NCBI GenBank assembly: GCA_041496705.1
Contig: JBGQFD010000002.1
Location: forward strand, 17,938-81,937
From: Gammaproteobacteria bacterium
GTDB lineage: Bacteria; Pseudomonadota; Gammaproteobacteria; Burkholderiales; SG8-39
Direction of reading: 5' to 3'
DNA length: 64,000 bases
Both the position numbers and the translations under genes were made by a program. Positions 7,459 through 17,936 of this stretch are shown here, in pieces. How positions within the stretch are numbered: position 1 is the first letter of the stretch; the number at the start of each line of letters is the position of its first letter. The notes under the pieces were generated by a model, which had not been told where the DNA came from, ran no database searches, and saw nothing but the letters and a program-made list of their open reading frames with translations.

Positions 7459-8559
7459 TCAGAACCTTAGCGGTTTCCAGTACCCGGTGAGTTCGAGGTA
7501 TCCCCGGCCCAGCGCCTTCTCGCCCTGCCGCGCGCGCACGGCACCCTCCCAATAGATCGCGCCGGTGCTGGCGCGCGAGTCGAGCTCCTGGTCGTCGATC
7601 AGCGGTTCGAGATCGAGCGCCAACCCGGCCGCCTCCACCCGCAGCGCCACCGGATACGCGGCACCGCTGCGCGGCGAGCGCCAGTGGCGCAAGGGAACAA
7701 ACCGTACTTCTCCGCGCCGAAGGCTGCGCACGCGTCCGTCCGCGGCGCGCAGCGATCCTCCCGACCAGAACGCGCCGCCGTCCCTGCCGCGAATGCGAAA
7801 CGCCATGAGCGCGCCACCGTCGGCGAGATTGATGCCGATCCAGTCCCAGCCGACCGCCTCCTCGGCCAAGTACTCGCTCGACCACTCGTGGTCGAGCCAG
7901 GCTTCGCCCGTCACTTCCACGGCGCGGTTCTCCACGACGACGCTGCCCTTCACCGCGAGCTGCGGCAGACTGTAGTAGTAGCTCGCCTGGGCCGGCCGGG
8001 GACCCTTGCGGCTGAAACCCTGGTCGCCCTGGAGGAACGGTGGCTGCCTCGCTTCGAAGCGCAAGGCATAGCGGAACCCCCGCGCAATGACTTCCGCGGC
8101 ATAACCGCCGTCGGTCGCCTTCAGCGACCAGTCCTCGATGGCGATGTCCATCCTCCCCTCGGCGGCTTCCGCGAGGCCAAACCCGGAACGCGCGGCACGC
8201 TGGTCGCCGAGCAGGCGGCCGGCTTCGGGACGCGAGAGCGCCGCGTGCGCGAACAGCAGCTGCCGCGGCGTGAATCGGCTCGCGCCTTCTTCGGCTACCC
8301 GCGGGCGGTTGCGAAAGAAAGTGATCTGCATGCCCATGTCGCGGCCGTCGGCGGTCCTCAACCATCCGGTGATGTACCACCACTCGGTGCGGAACTGCGG
8401 GTGGCTGCCGTGATCGCGCGGAAATTTCAGCACCGTGCCCGGGCGCACGCGGGCATAGTCTGCCTGCGCGGACGCGACGATCGGCCAGCACGCGATCGAG
8501 AGAACGAGCAGTGCGCTCCCCTTTAGCGGAGTGCCAGATCGGCAGTGGCTCACCGGCAT
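7459..8559 (-). CDS. AttH-like lipocalin/CrtC-domain secreted protein (ABC-transporter-associated)
   Basis: 366 aa with a signal peptide. FPRDHGSHPQFRTEWWYITGWL...WLDHEWSS is the AttH/COG5621 signature. It lies 13 nt downstream of an FtsX permease. Confidence 0.8.
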   Translation of the reverse strand: MPVSHCRSGTPLKGSALLVLSIACWPIVASAQADYARVRPGTVLKFPRDHGSHPQFRTEWWYITGWLRTADGRDMGMQITFFRNRPRVAEEGASRFTPRQLLFAHAALSRPEAGRLLGDQRAARSGFGLAEAAEGRMDIAIEDWSLKATDGGYAAEVIARGFRYALRFEARQPPFLQGDQGFSRKGPRPAQASYYYSLPQLAVKGSVVVENRAVEVTGEAWLDHEWSSEYLAEEAVGWDWIGINLADGGALMAFRIRGRDGGAFWSGGSLRAADGRVRSLRRGEVRFVPLRHWRSPRSGAAYPVALRVEAAGLALDLEPLIDDQELDSRASTGAIYWEGAVRARQGEKALGRGYLELTGYWKPLRF

Positions 8560-8572
8560 GCCGCGCGTTTCA

Positions 8573-11077
8573 TTACCAGTCCTCCTTGACGGCGCGCACC
8601 GCCTCGCCGCTCATCGCCCGCCGCCCGCTCGCCACCGCGGTCAGCGTCGCGACGAAGAGCATCGCGACGACGAACTCCGCCAGCAGCCGCCAGGGCAGGT
8701 ACAGTTCCATGCCCCAGTGGAACGACTGGCGGTTGACCACGTGGATCAGCACCAGGCTGATGAGGCACCCTAGCGCGAGCCCCACCGCAAGTCCCAGCGC
8801 GCTCACCAGCGCGCCTTCCATGGCGAGCATCGCGCCGATCTGGCGGCGCGTCATGCCGAGGTGACGCAGCATGCCGAACTCGCGCCGGCGCGCGAGCACC
8901 AGGGCACCGAAAGCGGACGACAGGCCGCACACGCCGATGACTAGCGCGACGGCCTCGAGCGCATAGGTCACGGCAAAGGTGCGGTCGAAGATTCCGAGCG
9001 AAGCGTCGCGAATCTCGCCGGGAGCGGTGATATCCAGGGACACGCCCGCGCCCGCCCGCGCCTCGATCCCCAGGCGGACGTTTGCCGGATCCGCGCCCGG
9101 CGCGAGCCACAGCGCCAGGTCGTTGGCGTTGGGATCGCCGCTGTAACGGACGTATTCGTAGCGTTCGATCAGCACCGCCCCCTGCTGACGCGCATAGTCG
9201 CGCCACACCCCGGCGACGCTGAAACGCGCCTCGCGTCCGCCCAGTGGCAGCACGATCACGTCGCCGGGGCGCCACCCGTAGACGTCGGCGGCGATCTCGC
9301 TCACCCAGGCAGGCGGCGCATCGCCCGGTCGGCGTGCGTGCGCCGCCCCGAGCATGGGCGGCAGCCGGCCCTCGGCCCCGACGACCCGGGCGAGCAGCGT
9401 GATCGCCGGCCGGTCCGGCGCCAAGATCAAGCGCTGGCTGCGCATGAACTCGGCGCGCCGTACGCCGGGCAGTGCCGCGATGGCCTGCTGGTCGGCGGGC
9501 GAGAAGAACGCGGTATTGCCGCCGGACCCTGCGCGCACGTAGAGATCGGCGGGGAGCACCCGCTCCAGCCACTGGTCGAGCGACTGGCGAAACGACGCGA
9601 CCATGATGGCCATCGACACGATCAGACTGACGCTCGCGACGATCGCCGCCAGGCTGACGCCCACCGCCCCGGCCGAGCCACGCAACTGCGCGAGACCGAC
9701 CTGTGCTACGACCGGCCCCCTCGCGGGCAGCGCGTGAAAGCAAGCGAGCGCGATGCGCGGCATGAGAAGCACCGTGCCGATAAGGAGCAAAGCGATCGCC
9801 GCATAGCCGAACAGCGGCAGCCCGCCCACTGGGCCGGCCTGCGTGAGCGCGGCCCCGGCGAGGAGCGCGGCGATGCCGGGCCACGCCGACCGCAGCCGAT
9901 CGAACGCATGCACCTCGTCTCCGGCGCGCAGGGCTTTCGCCGGATCGGCGCGCGCGGCCTCCAGGGCCGGCGCCAGACTGCCCAGAACCGCCGCGGTCAC
10001 TCCGAGACAGAAAAACAGAGCCAGCGCCGGCGCGTCGGGCACCAGCACCGGGTTGATACCGCGGAAATATCCCGCGCCGAGTTCCGCGCCGAACCGACGC
10101 AGCACCGCCGCGGCAACGACGTAGCCGAGCAGGACTCCAAGGAGCGAACCCGCCACGCCGACGCTGGCGGCCTCGGCGAGCAACATCGCCACCAGCCCGC
10201 GCCGCGTCAAACCGAGCGCGCGCAGCAGGGCAAGCTGGGCGCGCCGCCGCACCACCGCGAGCGCCTGCGCCGAGAACACCAGGAGCCCTCCGGTGAACAG
10301 CGCGACCAGCGCGAGCACGTTGAGATTCACCCGGTAGGCGCGCGACAGCGACGCGTTGCGATCCACCTCCGCATCCGGGCGTTCCACGAGCAGACCGGCC
10401 GGCAACCCGGCGCGCAGCTGCCCGGCGAACCGTTCGGGATCGGTTCCGGGAAGCAGTCGCAGATCGATGCGGTTCAGCAAGCCGGGCCGGGCGAACAACA
10501 CTTGAGCGGCGCCGATATCGATGACACCGAAGCGCTCCCGGCCCGCGCCTTCCAGGATCCCGGCAACGCGCAGCGAAATCACGTTCAGTCCGACCTGCAC
10601 GGGCAGCGCGTCACCGGTTTTCAATCCCAGCGACCCGGCTGCGGCGGCGGAAAGGAAAAGCCGGTCGGGCCGCAGGAGATCCAGCCGGTCGGCGACCTCA
10701 GCGGCGGCTAGGAACGGCTGGATCCGGGACGCGCGGAAGACATCGAGTCCGAGAATTCTCAGCGAATCGCGCTGGCCGGGAATTCTCGCTTCCACCTCGA
10801 GCACAGGACTGGCCACCGCTACTTCGGGGAGCCTGGCCACGCGCGGGTACAAGGCTTCGTCGAACCCGGAATGGGAACCGCCGATGGTGAGATCGGCCTC
10901 TCCCGAAAGCAGCTGGACCGCCGTCCGGAATTCTCCGAGGGCGGCGCCGTTGACCAGCTGCACGGCATAGCCGAGCGCCACGCCCAGTGCTATGGCGGCG
11001 AGCGACAACGCCAGCCGCCCAGGGTTCTGGAGCGACGGCGCGATCAGCAGGTTGAAGCGGATGCCGGAGAGCGGCAT
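8573..11077 (-). CDS. ABC transporter permease, double FtsX-domain (MacB/AttFG-like)
   Basis: 834 aa with two repeated 4-TM FtsX modules. It is flanked downstream by the AttH-like gene. Confidence 0.9.
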   Translation of the reverse strand: MPLSGIRFNLLIAPSLQNPGRLALSLAAIALGVALGYAVQLVNGAALGEFRTAVQLLSGEADLTIGGSHSGFDEALYPRVARLPEVAVASPVLEVEARIPGQRDSLRILGLDVFRASRIQPFLAAAEVADRLDLLRPDRLFLSAAAAGSLGLKTGDALPVQVGLNVISLRVAGILEGAGRERFGVIDIGAAQVLFARPGLLNRIDLRLLPGTDPERFAGQLRAGLPAGLLVERPDAEVDRNASLSRAYRVNLNVLALVALFTGGLLVFSAQALAVVRRRAQLALLRALGLTRRGLVAMLLAEAASVGVAGSLLGVLLGYVVAAAVLRRFGAELGAGYFRGINPVLVPDAPALALFFCLGVTAAVLGSLAPALEAARADPAKALRAGDEVHAFDRLRSAWPGIAALLAGAALTQAGPVGGLPLFGYAAIALLLIGTVLLMPRIALACFHALPARGPVVAQVGLAQLRGSAGAVGVSLAAIVASVSLIVSMAIMVASFRQSLDQWLERVLPADLYVRAGSGGNTAFFSPADQQAIAALPGVRRAEFMRSQRLILAPDRPAITLLARVVGAEGRLPPMLGAAHARRPGDAPPAWVSEIAADVYGWRPGDVIVLPLGGREARFSVAGVWRDYARQQGAVLIERYEYVRYSGDPNANDLALWLAPGADPANVRLGIEARAGAGVSLDITAPGEIRDASLGIFDRTFAVTYALEAVALVIGVCGLSSAFGALVLARRREFGMLRHLGMTRRQIGAMLAMEGALVSALGLAVGLALGCLISLVLIHVVNRQSFHWGMELYLPWRLLAEFVVAMLFVATLTAVASGRRAMSGEAVRAVKEDW

Positions 11078-11103: not shown

Positions 11104-11742
11104 TCACGCAACCAGACCGTGTCGCATGGCGAACTTGACGAGTTCGACGGTGTCGTGAACCTTGAGCTTCTTCATGATGCGCGCCCGGTAGGTCTCGATC
11201 GTCTTGGGGGAAAGCGACAGCGCTTGGGCGATTGCGGCGTTGGTGCGGCCTTCGACCACGTGCTGCAGCACGTCGCGCTCGCGCAGGCTGAGGCTGTCCA
11301 GAGGGCTGAGGCTCGCGCCCTCGCGCAGATAGCCGTCGATGACCGTCTCGGTGATCCTGTGACTCAGGTAGCGCTTGCCCGCACGCAGTGCACGGATCGC
11401 CTCGACCACTTCATCCCCTGCAGACTCCTTTAGAACGTAGCCCTGCGCGCCTGCCTGCAGCGCCCGGTAGATATGTTCTGCGCTGAGGTACATCGAGAGG
11501 ATCAGCACGCGCGTGTCCGGGCACTTTTCGGTAATGCGGCGCGTCGCTTCGACGCCGTCGATCTCGGGCATGGCAATGTCCATGATGACGATGTCCGGCC
11601 GCAGGCGTTGCGCCTCGGTAACGGCGTCGCGACCGTTTCCCGCTACCCCGACCACCTTGAGATCCTGGGTGCCGTCGATGAGCGCCCGCAGGCCGTCCCG
11701 CACCACCGCGTGATCGTCTACGAGAAGGATCGTGACCGGCAC
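11104..11742 (-). CDS. NarL/LuxR-family response regulator
   Basis: Receiver domain (ILLVDDH...DIVIMDIAMPEIDG) plus LuxR HTH (LSLRERDVLQHVVEGRTNAAIAQALSLSPKTIETY). The GTG start at 11742 sits 1 nt after the kinase stop. Confidence 0.9.
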   Translation of the reverse strand: MPVTILLVDDHAVVRDGLRALIDGTQDLKVVGVAGNGRDAVTEAQRLRPDIVIMDIAMPEIDGVEATRRITEKCPDTRVLILSMYLSAEHIYRALQAGAQGYVLKESAGDEVVEAIRALRAGKRYLSHRITETVIDGYLREGASLSPLDSLSLRERDVLQHVVEGRTNAAIAQALSLSPKTIETYRARIMKKLKVHDTVELVKFAMRHGLVA

Positions 11743-11743
11743 T

Positions 11744-14713
11744 TCAGATCTCCGCTGCTGTGCGATATTCGACCAGCACCTCGACGCCCACATCGGGCTG
11801 CGCCCTCAGGACAAATTGCGCCCCGACGGCCTCGGCTCGCTCGCGCATGATCAGCAGCCCCCAGCCTGATCCTTCCGTGGATCCTACCCTGCTGGGGTCG
11901 AAGCCCACGCCGTTGTCTTGCACCGACAGAGTCGCCCGCCCGTCGCGGCGCCGGATCGCGATCTCGACCCGGTCGGCACTCGAGTGCTTGGCAATGTTGG
12001 TGAGCGCCTCTTGGGCGATTCTGAACATGGCCAGATCGACAGTCTTGGGGAAATCGGTGCGCGTCGAATCTCCGTCGAAAGCGACCTGGATCCCGGTTCT
12101 TCGCGAGAACCCGGCCGCGAGCGAGCGCAGCGCCGCCGGCAGTCCATACTCGTCGAGGGTGTGTGGACGCAGCTCCGTCATGAGGTTGCGTATCGCATCG
12201 ACCATGTCCCGGACCAGCATGCTGCAGTCATCCAGGCGCGCCGCCAGCTCCGGCTTTGTTTTTGCCGGCAGGCCGCCTGCAACGATGCTGAGATTCAGCC
12301 CGAGCCCGGTCAGATTCTGCCCGACGAGATCGTGCAGCTCGCGCGCGATGAGCCGGCGCTCCGACTCCTGGATCTCCACGAGACGACGCGAGGTCACCCT
12401 CAACCGGTCGGCGTAGTTGTGCAGATCTTCCTCGTCGCGCTTGCGCTCGGTGATGTCGTGGCTGATCTCCGAAAACCCGCGGAGCTTTCCATCGGCGTCC
12501 CGGAGCGGTGTGGCAATCACGTGAGCCCAGAAGCGCGACCCATCCTTGCGCACGCGCCAGCCCTCGCTCTCGTATCTGCCCTGCAGCGCGGCGAACTCGA
12601 GCTGGATGCCAGCGTCCCCGCGGATGGCGTGATCCGGAAGGAAGAAGCACGAGTAATGCCTGCCGATGATCTCCTCGGCGCGGTAACCCGCGATGCGCTC
12701 CGCCCCGAGGTTCCAGCTCGTCACGTGGCCTTTGGTGTCGAGCATGTAGATCGCGTAGTCGCGCACGTTTTCCACCATCATGCGAAAGCGCTCCTGGGAG
12801 ACCTTCGCCTGCTCTTCGGCGCGTTTCCGCTCCGTGATGTCTTGGCAGGTACCGAGCACCCGCACGGCTCGGCCCGACGCATCACGGTCCACGCGCGCTT
12901 TGCTATGAATCTCGCGAATCTCTCCGTCCGGCCGCACGATGCGAAACTGGCATTCGTAGGCGTTACCGTCGTGCAGGGCTTTGCGCGCCGCCCGTGCGGT
13001 GCGCTCTCGATCTTCCGGGTGGACGAACGGGTAGAAGCCGTAGAAAGCCGAGGGCAGGTGATCGCGAGCGACACCGAAGATCCTGGACAGCTGTTCCGAC
13101 CACTGGCGCGAATCGTCGAGCATGTCCCATTCCCAGCTGCCCAGATTGGCGAGCGCCTGCGCTTCCTGCAATTGCACTTCGCGCGCCTGCAGCGCCTCGT
13201 TCTTTTGCCGTTGCTCCGTGACGTCGCGCGAAACCTTGATGACGCTCACGACGTTGCCTTTCGAATCGGAGACCGAGCTGACCTGACTTTCCATGTAGCG
13301 AGCCTCCCCGCTCGGCAGCAGGAAGCGAAACTCGGCTCGCCGCGCCACTCCGTCGCGGACGGTATCGAAAAAAGTCTTGCGGACCCGCTCCCGGTCTTCC
13401 GGATGTACGCTCTGGAACGATTCAGTGCCCACCAGGGCCTTGTAGTTCTCGATCAATCCAGCGTACGCCGGATTGAGGTACACCAGCCGCCCCTCTGGGC
13501 TCAGCAGGGCGATCATGTCATATGCGTTCTCGGCGATCAGGCGGAAGCGCTCTTCGCTTTCCCGCAGATCTTTGGTGATTTGGTCGGCGATCTTTACTGC
13601 CCGGGTTCGGGAGGAAGATAGAGAATAGAGAATCCCAAACAGAAGGAAGCTCGAGAGCAGTCCGCCTGCCAACACGATAGACGGGAACAACCTATTGACC
13701 TGATCGACAAACACCTTCTCTGGGGCGCTGAAGTGTATCTCCCATTTCCGCCCGCCGACTTCGATTGGAAGGTTCTGACTGAGACCATAGCCGAGGCCAT
13801 CCTCCTGGGACTGTGTGTTCGAGTTCCGTATCAGCTGATTGCTGTCGAATAGCAATCTTTCGTTGTCGAGGCTCAGACCGCGCCGATCCGAAGCAGGTCC
13901 GGTATCGTAGAGTCGAAATCGCAAGAATTGCAGCGTTTGTTCATCGAGCGCGCCCCTCATCAGATTCTCAACGTTGAACCCCGCGCCAACCGAACCCACG
14001 TATGCGGCACGCCGATCTTCTTTGGTGACTAGGGGAACTCCCTGCCGGTAAACAGGTAATCGCATCGAAAGTCCAACAAATGCCTTCTCGCGCATCACTC
14101 GAATAAGCCGTCCGGATGCCGTCAGGCGCCCCGAATCTCGAGCGGATTGTAGAGCTTCCAATGCGGCAGCGTGATTACTAGCTGCAGCGTTGGCGGAAGA
14201 AATGTCGAGACCCAAGGCAAACTTATTGGCGGCCATGGGCTCAAGGTATACCAACACGTGATACTCGGATCGGTCGCCAGGGGGCTTGATTGTGAATTCG
14301 GGGTAGCCTCCAGGTTCGATGCTGGTGTCGCGACGCACCTCGTCCTCGAATCGCTTCTTGTCCTCAGCCCGAATTGGAATCGCGAAATTCACCACCTCAA
14401 AACCGGGAAATCGATTCTTTAGATCCAGGGATTCGACATACCTGTGAAATTGCGCTCGGCTAACCGTTCTTTGAGTGCCGAACAGCGCCCGCACACCGTG
14501 CAGAACACCCGCGTACGACTGAATGCGTGCCTCAATCACCCGCCTTGCTTCCGCAGCTTGGTGGTCGAATCGCTCCCTTGCGGCGCCTTCGATATTGCCC
14601 CGAATTACCGCATACAGGATCAGCGAGAATAGGCTGCCGGTCACCAATACCAACCCTGGCAAGACGACGCCTAGCCGCACACGAGAGGCAACGGAGTCAG
14701 AGGCCTCGGTCAT
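11744..14713 (-). CDS. Sensor histidine kinase: TM - CHASE - TM - 3x PAS - HisKA_3 - HATPase
   Basis: 989 aa with a CHASE-like periplasmic block (FHRYVESLDLKNRFPGFEVVNFA...YLEPMAANKFALGLD). Three PAS modules each end in ITERK-type motifs. The H-box is ARELHDLVGQNLTGL and a GxG ATPase end is present. Confidence 0.9.
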   Translation of the reverse strand: MTEASDSVASRVRLGVVLPGLVLVTGSLFSLILYAVIRGNIEGAARERFDHQAAEARRVIEARIQSYAGVLHGVRALFGTQRTVSRAQFHRYVESLDLKNRFPGFEVVNFAIPIRAEDKKRFEDEVRRDTSIEPGGYPEFTIKPPGDRSEYHVLVYLEPMAANKFALGLDISSANAAASNHAAALEALQSARDSGRLTASGRLIRVMREKAFVGLSMRLPVYRQGVPLVTKEDRRAAYVGSVGAGFNVENLMRGALDEQTLQFLRFRLYDTGPASDRRGLSLDNERLLFDSNQLIRNSNTQSQEDGLGYGLSQNLPIEVGGRKWEIHFSAPEKVFVDQVNRLFPSIVLAGGLLSSFLLFGILYSLSSSRTRAVKIADQITKDLRESEERFRLIAENAYDMIALLSPEGRLVYLNPAYAGLIENYKALVGTESFQSVHPEDRERVRKTFFDTVRDGVARRAEFRFLLPSGEARYMESQVSSVSDSKGNVVSVIKVSRDVTEQRQKNEALQAREVQLQEAQALANLGSWEWDMLDDSRQWSEQLSRIFGVARDHLPSAFYGFYPFVHPEDRERTARAARKALHDGNAYECQFRIVRPDGEIREIHSKARVDRDASGRAVRVLGTCQDITERKRAEEQAKVSQERFRMMVENVRDYAIYMLDTKGHVTSWNLGAERIAGYRAEEIIGRHYSCFFLPDHAIRGDAGIQLEFAALQGRYESEGWRVRKDGSRFWAHVIATPLRDADGKLRGFSEISHDITERKRDEEDLHNYADRLRVTSRRLVEIQESERRLIARELHDLVGQNLTGLGLNLSIVAGGLPAKTKPELAARLDDCSMLVRDMVDAIRNLMTELRPHTLDEYGLPAALRSLAAGFSRRTGIQVAFDGDSTRTDFPKTVDLAMFRIAQEALTNIAKHSSADRVEIAIRRRDGRATLSVQDNGVGFDPSRVGSTEGSGWGLLIMRERAEAVGAQFVLRAQPDVGVEVLVEYRTAAEI

Positions 14714-14850
14714 GATCCGTGCAATGAGCTCATCTGCTGGTCAAGGCAGTCAAGTGTACTGCAAGAGCATCAAACGGAATCAATGGCTCTGCGGAATACG
14801 TCCGCGAAGACTTCCCGAAATATCCATTTCGATTACGTACGACAGAAGAC

Positions 14851-14878
14851 AGAAAGACCGGATCGCTCCGGTCTTTCT
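14851..14878 (-). terminator. Rho-independent-type terminator hairpin downstream of the GRDP/WC-repeat gene
   Basis: Perfect 12-bp inverted repeat AGAAAGACCGGA-tcgc-TCCGGTCTTTCT, 33 nt after the stop at 14911. On the minus strand it is followed by GTCTTCTGTC. Confidence 0.6.
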
Positions 14879-14910
14879 TGAATGATGCCGCTACCACCAC
14901 CGGTTGCAGC

Positions 14911-15621
14911 TCAGATGCTGGCTGCCTTCGCCAGCTTCGGCCTTACCGAGAGACTAAGCTTGTTCACGGCAGGCCGGGCTGCAGCGCGCCAAGCAGCCCC
15001 TTCGGGTTCGCCGGCTGCCGCACACCAGGATGGGTCATCGGCTCTGGCGGCGGCAGCGCACCATGCCGCGCCTTCGGGCTGAGCCGCCGCCGCGCACCAA
15101 GCTGCGTCCTGAGCCTTAACGGCGGCTGCACACCAAGCGACTCCTTCAGGCTGAGCCGCTGCCGCGCACCATGCCGCATCCTTAGCGTTGATCGCGGCGG
15201 CGCACCACGCTTCGTCACCGTGCTTTGGCTCGCCGAACTCCCGTTCATACAATCGCTTCATGTTTTCGGAGGCTACTTTGAGATTCGCCCTATCTTCGGC
15301 GCCACGCATTCCAAAATACGGGAAATGGTGTAAAAAATATCCGAATACATTCTGGCAGTCGTCTGCGTACTTGAGCGTGTCCAAGATATGCCCATGCCAG
15401 AACTTGTCCACATCCTTGCTCGGCGCAATGGTCTCCTCAGGATGGGTTACTAAGAGAGCAAGAAACCGCTTGTACAACAGCTCTACACGGTCGACGTATT
15501 CACGAGACCAGCCCTGCCCCTCCTCTGCGTCCATGAGTTTCAGCTTGATGGGATCCAAATCTAGGGCTTGAATTCCAGCTACTACCTGCTCACCGGACCG
15601 GTTCATCAACTTTGTGTGCAT
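14911..15621 (-). CDS. GRDP/DUF1399-like His-rich domain fused to 7 x 12-aa W-C-A-A-A repeats (function unknown)
   Basis: 236-aa ORF with a GAGGAG RBS. Residues about 20-130 carry FWHGHILDT...FLHHFPYFGMRG. Residues 137-216 are exact-period repeats. It has its own terminator. There is no signal peptide or TM segment. Confidence 0.8.
   Translation of the reverse strand: MHTKLMNRSGEQVVAGIQALDLDPIKLKLMDAEEGQGWSREYVDRVELLYKRFLALLVTHPEETIAPSKDVDKFWHGHILDTLKYADDCQNVFGYFLHHFPYFGMRGAEDRANLKVASENMKRLYEREFGEPKHGDEAWCAAAINAKDAAWCAAAAQPEGVAWCAAAVKAQDAAWCAAAAQPEGAAWCAAAARADDPSWCAAAGEPEGAAWRAAARPAVNKLSLSVRPKLAKAASI
14974..15213 (-). repeat. In-frame imperfect tandem repeat: 36-nt unit, 72-nt super-unit, about 6.7 copies
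   Basis: GCN-TGG-TGC-GCN-GCN-GC cores recur every 36 nt. The encoded Trp residues fall at 139, 151, 163, 175, 187, 199 and 211. Confidence 0.85.
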
Positions 15622-16149
15622 GGTTCTTACTCCTCTGTCATTCGTTGGTAATCAATATGGAAACCGGCTTGAAAGAAGGTCGCTCTTCGAGCTGTTTCCG
15701 CGAGTCGTTTCGATCAAGAGAGTGATCGGGAATCAGGATTCGAAAAGCATTTCACCTCCCCCTGTCGAGGCGGTTCGAAAAGCTGCACTGAGGTATCGGG
15801 TGCGGGCGCTCATGCTCAAGAGCAGCACTGCCCATCGGTCTCGACTTCCCAACAGGCCATAGCCCACAGACTGCGGCGGGCGTGACTACGAACTTCATCC
15901 GACGATCTGTAACGGAACGTTCCCCAGCGCTCATTTGTCGGCGCGGTCGTCTGCCAAAGGCCCTTCGCACTAAGGGAATCTAATCAGGAGCAGCGGAAAG
16001 ATGCTGTCAGGCAAGACCGACAACCGATGTAGGGCTTTCCCTTACAGGGCCACGCAGAGTAAGCCGGCAGCCTTGCATGCGCCGCCGGCCCGGCTTGGCG
16101 CCGGGCAGGCATCGCCGCCCCTGCCGGCGGCGATAGCGCGACGGAGGTG

Positions 16150-16599
16150 TTACGAGCCGGCCACGATCACCAGCTCGTTCCGGACTGACGTGACGCCCGG
16201 GACATCGGCCGCCACCCGGGCGGCCTGTTCGCGATGCGCCCGCGAGTCCGCCGTTCCGTACAAGGTGACGACCCCGCTCGAGGAACCCGCGTCTATCGCG
16301 AGCAGCTTCAGCCGCGGGTCGGATCCCAGCGCGGACTTCACCCTGGCTGCCAAGGCCTTGTCCTCGTCGACCTTCGCTGCTTGCGCAGGCTTGGCCGCGG
16401 CGACCGGCCTTATCGGTTCGGTCTTTTCTTCCGTCGGCCTGGGCGCCAGCTGCACCTGGGATACCGGCCCGGTTTCCTTCTCGCTCTTCCACAGCGATGC
16501 GATCTGGTCGCACGCGACCAATCCGATTGCCAGTACACTTGCGCCCAAGGCGGGATAAACGCGATGTGCCTTCCTGCCAGATTTCATGATCTTCTCCAT
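16150..16599 (-). CDS. BON-domain lipoprotein
   Basis: Lipobox LAIGLVAC, a Pro/Ala/Lys-rich linker, and a C-terminal BON block (VKSALGSDPRLKLLAIDAGSSSGVVTLYGTADS...VPGVTSVRNEL). The start is either 16599 or 16587. Confidence 0.8.
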   Translation of the reverse strand: MEKIMKSGRKAHRVYPALGASVLAIGLVACDQIASLWKSEKETGPVSQVQLAPRPTEEKTEPIRPVAAAKPAQAAKVDEDKALAARVKSALGSDPRLKLLAIDAGSSSGVVTLYGTADSRAHREQAARVAADVPGVTSVRNELVIVAGS

Positions 16600-16754
16600 T
16601 TCCGGACAATACTGCCCTAGGACACGTCGCGATTCCGGTAGTTGCATCCCGCCATGCAAATTCCCGAGTGCTGTCGCTCCGCGGCGACGGGTCTCGCGCA
16701 GAAACTCTGCATGCGCGCCGATCGCGTTGATTCACGCATCCCATTGGTTCGCCC

Positions 16755-17936
16755 ATGACCCGTCCCTTGACGCTCGAACCCAGACTCGCCGCAATCCACG
16801 CGGCGGAAACCCCGCGTTTTTCCAACGCCGAAATGGCGCGCCGCCGCGCCGCGCTGCTCGCGGTCATGCAAACCGCGGAAGTCGACCACCTGCTCGTGTG
16901 CGGCGAGCAGCGCGCCGGTTCCGGAGTCGCCTGGCTCACCGCCTGGCCTGCGACCGTGGAGGCCTATGCAATCGTGGCAGCCGACGAGCCGCAGGTCATG
17001 TATGTGGAGTGGTACAACCACTGGCCTCAGGCAAAGCAGCTCGCCCACGACACCGAGGTGCACTGGGGCGAGCACCAGGGCATCGAAAAGGTCATCCGCG
17101 ATCTAAAGTCCAGGGGTGCGAAACGCGTCGGAATGATGGGAACGCTCGGCTACGCAAAGTGCAGGAAGCTCGAGGCGACGTTCGGTTCTCTGGTCGACCT
17201 GAACCGCGAGTACGTGCGGCTGCGGCTACTGAAGTCACCCGAGGAGATAGACTGGATGCGCATCGGCGCGGCGCTTACCGACCTTGCCATCGAAGGCTTG
17301 CGGCGCGAAGCGCGACCGGGCATGACCGAACGCGAACTGGGCGCGATCTGCGAGGCCGCCTACCATCCTCACGGCGGCGTGACCTACATCCACTACTTCC
17401 TCGCCACGCCGATGGCGAATCCTGAATACTGCGTGCCGCGCCAGTTCGCCTCCGGCCGCAGGATCCAGCCGGGCGACGTGGTCGCCACCGAGATCACCGC
17501 CCAGTTCTGCGAGTACCCGGGCCAGATTCTCAGGACTTTCACGGTGGCCGCGGAACCGACGCCGCTCTTCCGGCGCCTTCACGAAACGGCAGAGGCCGCG
17601 TACGACGCCGTCACCCGGGTCGTCCGTCACGGCACGACTATGCAGGAGATTCTCGACGCGGCCGGGGTGATCGAGCAAGCCGGCTTCTCAGTCTACGACG
17701 ACCTGATGCACGGATTCGGGGGAGGTTATTTCCCACCGGTGCTCGGATCGAAAAGCCGCCCTGCCGGTCCCCTTCCGGACATGAAGCTCGAAGCAGGCAT
17801 GACCTGCGTGGTGCAGCCCAACGTCATCACCAAGGACCAGAAAGCCGGAGTGCAGGTCGGCGAGCTGGTGCTGGTGACAAAGACGGGATTCGAGAGGTTG
17901 CACGGCGCCGGGCGCGGCCTTTTCCGCATCGGCTGA
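16755..17936 (+). CDS. M24 family peptidase (Xaa-Pro aminopeptidase/creatinase-like)
   Basis: 393 aa with a creatinase-like N-domain and a pita-bread C-domain (GDVVATEITAQF...MHGFGGGY...MTCVVQPNV...GELVLVT). Confidence 0.85.
   Translation: MTRPLTLEPRLAAIHAAETPRFSNAEMARRRAALLAVMQTAEVDHLLVCGEQRAGSGVAWLTAWPATVEAYAIVAADEPQVMYVEWYNHWPQAKQLAHDTEVHWGEHQGIEKVIRDLKSRGAKRVGMMGTLGYAKCRKLEATFGSLVDLNREYVRLRLLKSPEEIDWMRIGAALTDLAIEGLRREARPGMTERELGAICEAAYHPHGGVTYIHYFLATPMANPEYCVPRQFASGRRIQPGDVVATEITAQFCEYPGQILRTFTVAAEPTPLFRRLHETAEAAYDAVTRVVRHGTTMQEILDAAGVIEQAGFSVYDDLMHGFGGGYFPPVLGSKSRPAGPLPDMKLEAGMTCVVQPNVITKDQKAGVQVGELVLVTKTGFERLHGAGRGLFRIG

Follow-up and report, generated by a model that had tools for sequence, protein, structure and literature searches.

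We have examined a gene at 14911-15621 on the minus strand of a 64,000-nucleotide (nt) stretch of DNA (the window) from a Gammaproteobacteria bacterium of the Burkholderiales lineage SG8-39 (GenBank assembly GCA_041496705.1, contig JBGQFD010000002.1, positions 17,938 to 81,937). Its product joins a conserved N-terminal domain of family PF27765 to a tail of tandem Trp-Cys repeats, and in Burkholderiales the gene is a regular companion of a sensor histidine kinase with a CHASE domain. We tentatively propose, at less than even probability, that the protein is a self-contained, leaderless pro-protein whose repeat units would supply a signal to the neighbouring CHASE kinase, in a layout like that of comX-comP-comA. 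The repeat architecture, the C-terminal RPxL motif and the linkage to the kinase are in no annotation that we found for PF27765.

Results

The gene and its product comprise the following elements, in amino acids (aa) where a length is given.

14911-15621, minus strand: complete coding sequence of a PF27765 (UCP032817-like) member, 236 aa plus stop, ATG start (open reading frame (ORF) list and sequence)
15217-15621, minus strand: N-terminal conserved domain, residues 1-135, predicted to be all-helical (alignments and AlphaFold2 (AF2) models)
14962-15213, minus strand: seven 12-aa repeat units, residues 137-220, each x-A-W-C-A-A-A plus a 5-aa spacer
14932-14943, minus strand: conserved R-P-x-L motif, R227-P228-K229-L230, inside the tail K221-I236 (family alignments)

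Trp falls at residues 139, 151, 163, 175, 187, 199 and 211 of the 236-aa protein, a period of 12, and is followed by Cys in units 1-6; unit 7 is degenerate (W-R, with an Arg codon, CGC, one base from TGC). Tandem Repeats Finder gives a 72-nt period, or a 24-aa super-repeat, over 14977-15207, and the tract is the sole strong tandem repeat within the 64-kb window. The ORF list and the sequence thus bear out every detail given in an earlier note on this stretch, which had described the ORF, the Trp spacing of 12, Cys in six of seven units and the 24-aa super-repeat.

When units are compared with one another, the A-W-C-A-A-A positions show 63 synonymous versus 12 non-synonymous codon differences, whereas the spacers show 18 versus 98. 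Purifying selection holds the repeat motif, whereas the spacers can change freely. This pattern, together with an in-frame RPxL beyond the repeats in most homologues, indicates that the repeats are translated and constrained and are not recent untranslated slippage. It contradicts a scenario raised earlier, in which orthologues end before the repeats and the tract is non-translated read-through. Two overlapping ORFs in other frames (14878-15333, plus strand, 151 aa; 14964-15248, minus strand, 94 aa) were rejected as genes: both are incidental to the GC-rich repeat, and homologues keep the 236-aa frame alone.

There is no hydrophobic segment in the protein (maximum 19-residue Kyte-Doolittle mean 0.99), which supports the earlier claim that signal peptide and transmembrane (TM) segment are both lacking. 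To the question of whether the repeats form helical hairpins, AF2 answers with predicted disorder, at a predicted local distance difference test score (pLDDT) of ~30-38 across the repeat region.

An identical protein (P0001, 100%) bears the Pfam tag PF27765.1, 'UCP032817-like', as do more than 1000 close homologues, including all 120 best homologues listed; the assignment is this precomputed tag, its profile score not being recomputed here. Every invariant column of the family core, D-xx-W-H-x-H-I-L-D-T-xx-Y-xx-D-C...H-H-x-P-Y-x-G, is present in the window protein. Exhaustive HMMER searching with residues 1-135 recovered 6967 representative clusters (50% identity) at E <= 1e-3 and 2157 at E <= 1e-10, whose public labels are 'hypothetical protein' or 'glycine-rich domain-containing protein-like'. 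We found no literature on the bacterial family PF27765, only papers on plant or fungal glycine-rich domain-containing proteins (GRDPs), and NCBIfam and PADLOC searches gave no match.

Against PF07173, the GRDP/DUF1399 profile, the window protein scores E = 8e-4 and 20.5 bits, and its N-terminal domain alone 22.0 bits, with a gathering cutoff of 22.7. The match is confined to residues 42-88, aligned with profile positions 93-143 of 143, the last third. However, 54 of 64 diverse family members match PF07173 at E <= 0.01 (best E = 2.9e-7), and by profile comparison the PF27765 protein is a distant relative of GRDP/DUF1399 and not a PF07173 member. The GRDP/DUF1399 likeness proposed in the earlier note therefore survives as distant kinship, whereas the window protein itself falls below the cutoff and has PF27765 as its true family. 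Plant members of PF07173 (AtGRDP1/2, GhGRDP1) hold the W-H-x-H-x-L...Y-x-x-D-C core in common with it. Plant GRDPs also join the domain to a low-complexity Gly-rich region (PMC4299439), whereas PF27765 tails carry Ala/Cys/Ser repeats. The kinship with GRDPs yields no mechanism.

A census of 429 distinct family members sorts their tails into four types.

Hydrophobic-Cys repeats: 234 members
Equivalent repeat with Ser replacing Cys: 42 members
Non-repeat tail with at least three Cys, mostly 4-6 (for example KCDGSNCSSKDCSKCGKSCSGGKC): 112 members
Other or short tail: 34 members

A repeat tail first described as unlike anything that could be placed is the standard layout in thousands of homologues. 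Family tails are hypervariable and predicted to be disordered (AF2 pLDDT ~30-50). The repeat logo is [A/P/S/T]-A(86-89%)-[Y/W/M/F/L]-[C/S]-[G/S/A]-[A/V]-A, with a period of 7-14 (mode 12), 3-17 copies and one Cys per 8-13 residues. The Trp position also accepts Y, F, L, M or V, and the Cys position accepts Ser. The residue after A-[WYFLM] is Cys in 1669 cases, Ser in 375, Ala in 104, Gly in 39 and Thr in 16. Since Ala makes up 22% of tails, this excess shows that a primary thiol or hydroxyl is selected and not mere small size. In whole clades (Janthinobacterium, Massilia, Pseudoduganella) every repeat Cys has become Ser with the remaining motif kept. The thiol-based metal or redox buffer suggested in the earlier note is weakened accordingly, as Cys can be Ser (42 of the 429) and W-C is not obligatory.

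The strict Cys/Ser requirement also disfavours a cleavage rule based merely on small residues, and resemblances of the motif to CaaX-like C-A-A-X, to a nucleophile-elbow-like Sm-X-Nu-X-Sm and to the signal-peptidase A-X-A were set aside as curiosities only. Neither Gly-Gly nor any other conserved cleavage motif was found between domain and cores in the family alignments and tails.

Copy number is polymorphic. Between alleles of at least 90% identity, the only differences are in the number of whole units: the window allele has seven and P0369 nine (one extra 24-aa super-repeat), and in another cluster alleles carry 2, 3, 4, 5 or 6 copies of AAYCGEIRAET. Additionally, many genomes hold two or three tandem paralogues of unlike motif, such as AWSARA beside AFSSxA or AWCGA beside AYCGA.

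RPx[LFVIM] lies within the last 30 aa in 62-83% of members of each tail type. In the AF2 model of the short natural member P0153, the final residues 171-179 have a mean pLDDT of 84, versus ~50 in the preceding Cys-rich segment. From these pLDDT values we infer that the C-terminal RPxL may dock on the N-terminal domain, making the variable segment a presented loop. One member with Val-Ser repeats (AAVSGVAIR; L093, 2789-3625) has some 60 C-terminal residues that look frame-shifted, being Arg/Gly-rich and without RPxL, and may reflect a faulty assembly or a copy in decay.

In 64 diverse members, the invariant residues of the N-terminal domain are L22, W38, Y50, D72, W75, H76, H78, I79, L80, D81, T82, Y85, D88, C89, G94, H98, H99, P101, Y102 and G104. 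The His/Asp/Cys/Tyr constellation among them looks like an active or metal site. AF2 predicts a domain of ~130 aa with six helices, at pLDDT 70-90 in the window protein and above 90 in P0153 (57-sequence alignment; mean 82.5, predicted template modelling score 0.78). Foldseek comparison of the two AF2 models with the Protein Data Bank (PDB) returned noise only (best E = 1.6-1.7, TM-score < 0.3), and phmmer and profile searches of the PDB found no real relative, only a poly-Ala match and MMP2 at E ~ 1. Some members carry two tandem N-terminal domains (P0271 and P0272, 345-351 aa, the P0271 cluster holding 127 member sequences; P0127). In P0141 the N-terminal domain is followed by a TM segment and a Gly/Cys-only tail (GCGASGGDCGDGGGGCGCGGCGGCGG...).

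The genes that follow the repeat gene on its own strand were assigned by Pfam scan.

11744-14713, minus strand: partner sensor histidine kinase, 989 aa, with TM, CHASE, TM, three PAS, HisKA_3 and HATPase
13886-14467, minus strand: CHASE sensor domain of the kinase, residues 83-276
11104-11793, minus strand: LuxR/NarL-type response regulator (REC + GerE)

Two TM segments of the kinase (~14-38 and ~343-365) flank the CHASE domain, which is therefore periplasmic. On the minus strand of the window the order is BON gene, repeat gene, hairpin, kinase and REC + GerE regulator, and the order gene, kinase, regulator is repeated in L001, L002, L007, L009, L092 and L093. We fetched 80 loci from named genomes, and the family gene was callable in 56 of them. 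In 42 of these 56 the family gene has a CHASE kinase no more than 3 kb away, which amounts to essentially all Burkholderiales loci with enough contig. The earlier description of a monocistronic gene beside a kinase was right about the neighbour and understated the clue, as the kinase is a conserved partner in any orientation:

Gene followed by kinase: the window's clade
Kinase followed by gene: Variovorax, Massilia, Janthinobacterium, Pseudoduganella
Divergent pair: Noviherbaspirillum

The regulator stands beside the family gene only in some loci, and many loci have the kinase without it. Thus, the pair consists of the gene and the sensor kinase and is not simply a target gene beside its regulator. 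Many of the partner kinases are short, at ~600 aa, and lack PAS domains. In a reverse look-up, three of three CHASE-HisKA_3 relatives of the kinase (55%, 47% and 43% identity) adjoin a family gene, one of which had been unannotated.

Across 35 loci, the distance between CHASE domains correlates with that between repeat motifs when the kinase core is controlled for (partial Mantel r = 0.43, p = 2e-4) and when the N-terminal domain is controlled for as well (r = 0.35, p = 2e-4). The kinase core correlates less with the motif given CHASE (r = 0.18, p = 0.011). Mantel values of this kind are inflated by shared ancestry, with CHASE distance possibly just the better clock; CHASE distance also correlates with the N-terminal domain (r = 0.40). 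We therefore treat the fit of the Mantel result to co-evolution of sensor and repeats as supportive only. Between the window and L001, identity is 51% in CHASE, 65% in the core and 84% in the response regulator.

Base composition divides the kinase gene. In the window, GC content at third codon positions (GC3) is 0.62-0.64 in the repeat gene and 0.59 in the CHASE segment, compared with 0.80-0.81 in the PAS region, kinase core and regulator and 0.76-0.85 in flanking genes. The kinase gene is thus a compositional mosaic, with low GC3 in the CHASE part (13886-14467, inside the region 13400-16000) and high GC3 in PAS plus core (11744-13390). The closest clade shows the same split between CHASE and core (L001 0.60 versus 0.80, L007 0.62 versus 0.78, L009 0.52 versus 0.64). 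A recent horizontal cassette swap in this genome is not supported, since the window and L001 share 71-78% nucleotide identity throughout and the low CHASE GC3 is clade-shared.

The signals proposed earlier around the repeat gene, a GAGGAG ribosome-binding site, a 528-bp upstream region and a 12-bp hairpin, are each confirmed in the sequence.

15630-15635, minus strand: ribosome-binding site GAGGAG, 8 nt before the ATG (read from sequence)
14851-14878, minus strand: perfect 12-bp stem-loop, terminator- or attenuator-like, between the repeat gene and the kinase gene (sequence and folding)

The 78-nt stretch 14835-14912 that holds the hairpin folds at -34.5 kcal/mol (z = -3.85). A stem-loop also follows the stop codon in L001 (11 bp, 10953-10978) and L002 (10721-10746), where gene order is alike, and the L002 arms AAGACCGG...CCGGTCTT resemble those in the window. 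Its recurrence suggests that a terminator, attenuator or RNA-stability element is conserved between gene and kinase. The 528-bp gap runs upstream to the BON gene. The low-GC islet described earlier is real (0.51-0.56 versus ~0.65) and reaches past the repeat gene into the CHASE-coding part of the kinase gene.

A search for conserved promoter or operator sequences upstream of the gene found only short clade-specific blocks, none interpretable. One, TCAAGG(A/T)TTCCTGACAGAC, lies ~100 nt upstream of the family gene and is common to L002, L009 and L003 (alignment columns ~250-275); a different one, GAGGAGGTCA, is common to the window's clade. These blocks may be promoter or regulator sites. Rfam and tRNA searches of the window found nothing.

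No radical-SAM, YcaO, MNIO, LanM, C39-ABC, protease or exporter gene is shared within +/-10 kb across the 56 loci, and no maturase, protease and exporter cluster was found in the Pfam-annotated contexts of further loci or in the window. The absence of radical-SAM, MNIO, YcaO, protease and exporter genes near the repeat gene, which the earlier note had pointed out, is upheld. Metal-resistance genes are likewise not conserved near the family gene in the 56 loci.

Other neighbours in the window include, directly downstream of the regulator, a permease of 834 aa that combines two FtsX domains with a MacB-like periplasmic core (8573-11077, minus strand), followed by a CrtC/lipocalin-like protein (7459-8559, minus strand). 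This putative MacB-type exporter is not conserved beside the module in L001 or L002. Upstream, a BON-domain gene (16150-16659, minus strand) shares the strand of the repeat gene, and a divergent M24-family peptidase gene follows (16755-17936, plus strand), with Xaa-Pro peptidase-like NCBIfam matches that are weak and far below cutoffs. L001 has both genes in synteny, and L005 has DNA matching both.

Elsewhere in the family, an alpha/beta-hydrolase gene is convergent after the family gene in Patescibacteria (L050, L072, L084/L085, L086/L087, L088 and L089), with differing flanking genes. In Betaproteobacteria one stands beside the gene, divergent or co-directional, in L092 (2298-3179), L093 (1538-2398) and L094 (6519-7274). 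These hydrolases (Peptidase_S9/S15/DLH or Abhydrolase_1/6) belong to at least three unrelated subtypes, none at NCBIfam cutoff, and we treat them as a lead and not as proof of a link. A proline-specific peptidase theme linking M24, the S9/S15/S33-like hydrolases and RPxL was rejected as evidence, since NCBIfam scores are far below cutoffs and the hydrolase subtypes are unrelated. At the Patescibacteria-type locus L089 (4736-5674), the methionine sulfoxide reductase genes msrA and msrB are immediately upstream of the family gene and run in its direction, which hints at an oxidative-stress context.

Discussion

Purifying selection on the repeat motif, its strict nucleophile, its variable copy number and its rapid divergence between lineages lead us to regard the repeats as payload and Cys/Ser as a site of chemistry; we also count tandem paralogues with unlike motifs as payload-like behaviour. 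As a conserved enzyme gene is lacking nearby in every lineage, and the N-terminal domain has an active-site-like constellation, the protein is most simply self-contained. The idea of a self-contained precursor, one of several offered in the earlier note, is the best survivor, as no lineage, not even Patescibacteria with their tiny genomes, has a conserved maturase; the modification it supposes stays conjectural.

In our proposal, the repeat units would be the functional payload, and the protein's own N-terminal domain would help to modify the Cys/Ser of each unit or to use it for cleavage. Unit-derived peptides or their derivatives would then reach the periplasm and act as ligand of the neighbouring CHASE kinase, which would signal onward through the LuxR-type regulator. 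The whole would be a Gram-negative counterpart of peptide-pheromone modules, with many copies per precursor. A more specific form of the proposal, which we consider doubtful, is kin-specific peptide signalling in Betaproteobacteria, with a leaderless, self-maturing pro-protein of 3-17 units that would yield many copies of a short and perhaps modified peptide, a co-evolving CHASE kinase and a new self-acting enzyme fold shared with eukaryotic GRDP/DUF1399. Such a system would be a multi-copy, Gram-negative analogue of the comQXPA or agr pherotype systems.

Several observations weigh against this signalling proposal. No signal peptide was found in the 236-aa protein, which leaves cell exit unexplained, and no exporter or protease is conserved beside the family gene in any lineage, which leaves release unexplained. 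The ~130-aa N-terminal domain is without a detectable enzyme relative. Two CHASE-GGDEF relatives of the sensor (42% identity) have no family gene beside them, contrary to the expectation that the gene follows the CHASE sensor whatever its output domain. CHASE GC3 is lower than that of the core in just 23 of 36 loci, with a mean difference of 0.02, so the compositional split is clade-specific. Additionally, in Patescibacteria, Bacteroidota, Verrucomicrobia, Chloroflexi and Cyanobacteria the members have Cys-rich tails without repeats, and no kinase gene stands beside theirs. Thus, the ancestral function was not kinase signalling as such.

These kinase-less members, which include those of reduced Patescibacteria genomes, point to a basic stand-alone activity, and suit another account that we consider unlikely: that of a cytoplasmic self-modifying or acceptor protein that is the output of the two-component system, with kinase and regulator merely controlling its expression. 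The N-terminal domain, as a small metal-dependent enzyme or binding module, would load or oxidise the Cys/Ser of its own looped tail, or alter it in some other way, for example in acyl or thio-ester carriage or in the scavenging of electrophiles or oxidants. Such a protein would need no signal peptide, and the invariant His, Asp and Cys of its domain, the strict nucleophile selected at the motif centre and the predicted order of the C-terminal motif next to a low-confidence tail, which would make that tail a presented loop, are all consistent with it. So are MsrA and MsrB immediately upstream in one locus and the recurrent alpha/beta-hydrolase, a possible de-acylase, of Patescibacteria and three proteobacterial loci, although the latter's three or more unrelated subtypes, none at a curated cutoff, count against the account. 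However, this account leaves unexplained both the loci with a kinase and no regulator and the co-divergence with the motif of the periplasmic CHASE domain rather than the cytoplasmic core, and extreme motif diversity and copy-number variation would be unusual for an enzyme's internal acceptor. The tight pairing of gene and kinase in any orientation, often without a regulator, would fit a cytoplasmic accessory partner that binds the PAS or dimerization and histidine phosphotransfer region of the kinase, modulates signalling and uses its Cys repeats as a thiol, redox or metal switch. The cytoplasmic character of the protein and the Cys-rich tails of most members agree with this idea, which we nevertheless find improbable: Ser-only repeats (42 of 429) cannot be thiol switches, many partner kinases of ~600 aa have no PAS domain to bind, the motif correlates more with CHASE than with the cytoplasmic core, and members in other phyla have no kinase.

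About equally improbable is a conventional multi-core precursor of a ribosomally synthesized and post-translationally modified peptide (RiPP), with a 130-aa leader, an antimicrobial or metallophore product, and maturases, protease and exporter encoded elsewhere. A conserved N-terminal region followed by hypervariable Cys/Ser-bearing cores fits that architecture, as do tandem paralogous genes and varying copy number, and the non-repeat Cys-rich tails are reminiscent of ranthipeptide- or SCIFF-like cores. Yet the lack of a maturase cluster shared within 10 kb or present in Pfam-annotated contexts, the lack of a Gly-Gly or other conserved cleavage motif before the cores, the presence of the gene in Patescibacteria, whose biosynthetic capacity is minimal, and invariant residues that look catalytic or metal-binding and not leader-like all speak for something else. 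Metal binding itself, in a metallothionein-like Cu/Zn or redox buffer formed by repeat thiolates and domain His, would draw on the six repeat Cys and His-rich domain of the window protein and on the 4-6 clustered Cys of non-repeat relatives. We hold it to be very improbable, given whole clades that swap every repeat Cys for Ser, the poor chelation to be expected of an Ala-rich disordered chain with a single Cys in every 12 residues and the absence of conserved metal-resistance genes from the 56 loci.

If the signalling proposal is true, ribosomal peptide signalling with a cognate kinase would exist in common soil and rhizosphere Betaproteobacteria (Variovorax, Massilia, Janthinobacterium, Noviherbaspirillum), in which cell-cell signalling is viewed mainly in terms of acyl-homoserine lactones. 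Bacterial CHASE-domain kinases, few of whose signals have been identified, would also gain their first class of ligand. As the invariant His/Asp/Cys site is held in common, an activity assigned to this domain of ~7000 clusters would transfer to plant GRDP/DUF1399, a family with links to stress tolerance and seed size. Should the signalling idea fail, a domain joined to hypervariable nucleophile repeats and a candidate docking motif, with polymorphic copy number, is an unusual architecture. The system is testable in cultured strains of Variovorax, Noviherbaspirillum or Janthinobacterium.

The pairing of gene and kinase is not described in the literature we searched, the family has no literature of its own and the fold has no solved relative. 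Thus, we rate the system as lying outside known kinds, with its function inferred. It resembles pheromone modules and fused autocatalytic precursors only in layout. A candidate parallel in the Burkholderia 'BiofilmReg' operon was dismissed as unrelated, as it concerns CHASE2.

Loci of the NHLP/Nif11 type encode maturases, C39-peptidase ABC exporters and precursors with Gly-Gly cleavage sites. The present family resembles their precursors in its long conserved N-terminal region, its hypervariable Cys-rich cores and its side-by-side paralogous genes. Maturases of these types, C39 exporters and Gly-Gly sites were not found at family loci, nor was there an NCBIfam match. Plant BURP-domain cyclases and the fungal borosin OphMA are autocatalytic fused RiPP precursors, with domain and cores in one polypeptide. 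Here too, a conserved His-containing domain is combined with short tandem cores bearing an aromatic residue, and no separate maturase gene is present. The window protein has no Pfam match to BURP (PF03181) or to a methyltransferase, the 64 diverse members have no BURP match and no PDB fold match was obtained. In contrast to those precursors, the candidate reactive residue here would be Cys/Ser, and modification is hypothetical.

A peptide ligand for a CHASE-domain histidine kinase has a eukaryotic precedent in Dictyostelium, where DhkA recognises the peptide SDF-2 (PMC1863423). SDF-2 stems from the leaderless protein AcbA, which is secreted unconventionally (PMC2828925). That system differs from the one in the window in being eukaryotic, with a non-homologous precursor, unlinked genes and no repeats.

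The comQXPA locus of Bacillus differs in its precursor and in its sensor. ComX is a single-core pre-peptide of ~55 aa served by a separate isoprenyl transferase, whereas the window gene encodes a 130-aa domain and belongs to a family with 3-17 cores and no separate enzyme; ComP senses by a multi-TM domain, whereas the window kinase would sense by a periplasmic CHASE domain in a Gram-negative envelope. Both loci nevertheless run in the order precursor, kinase, regulator on one strand, if the repeat protein is taken as the precursor, and comP/comA and the window genes belong to the same families, the kinases to PF07730 (HisKA_3) and PF02518 and the regulators to REC + GerE. In comQXPA, ComP varies far more in its sensor part than in its cytoplasmic part, and the sensor part changes together with the signal gene (PMC4008528).

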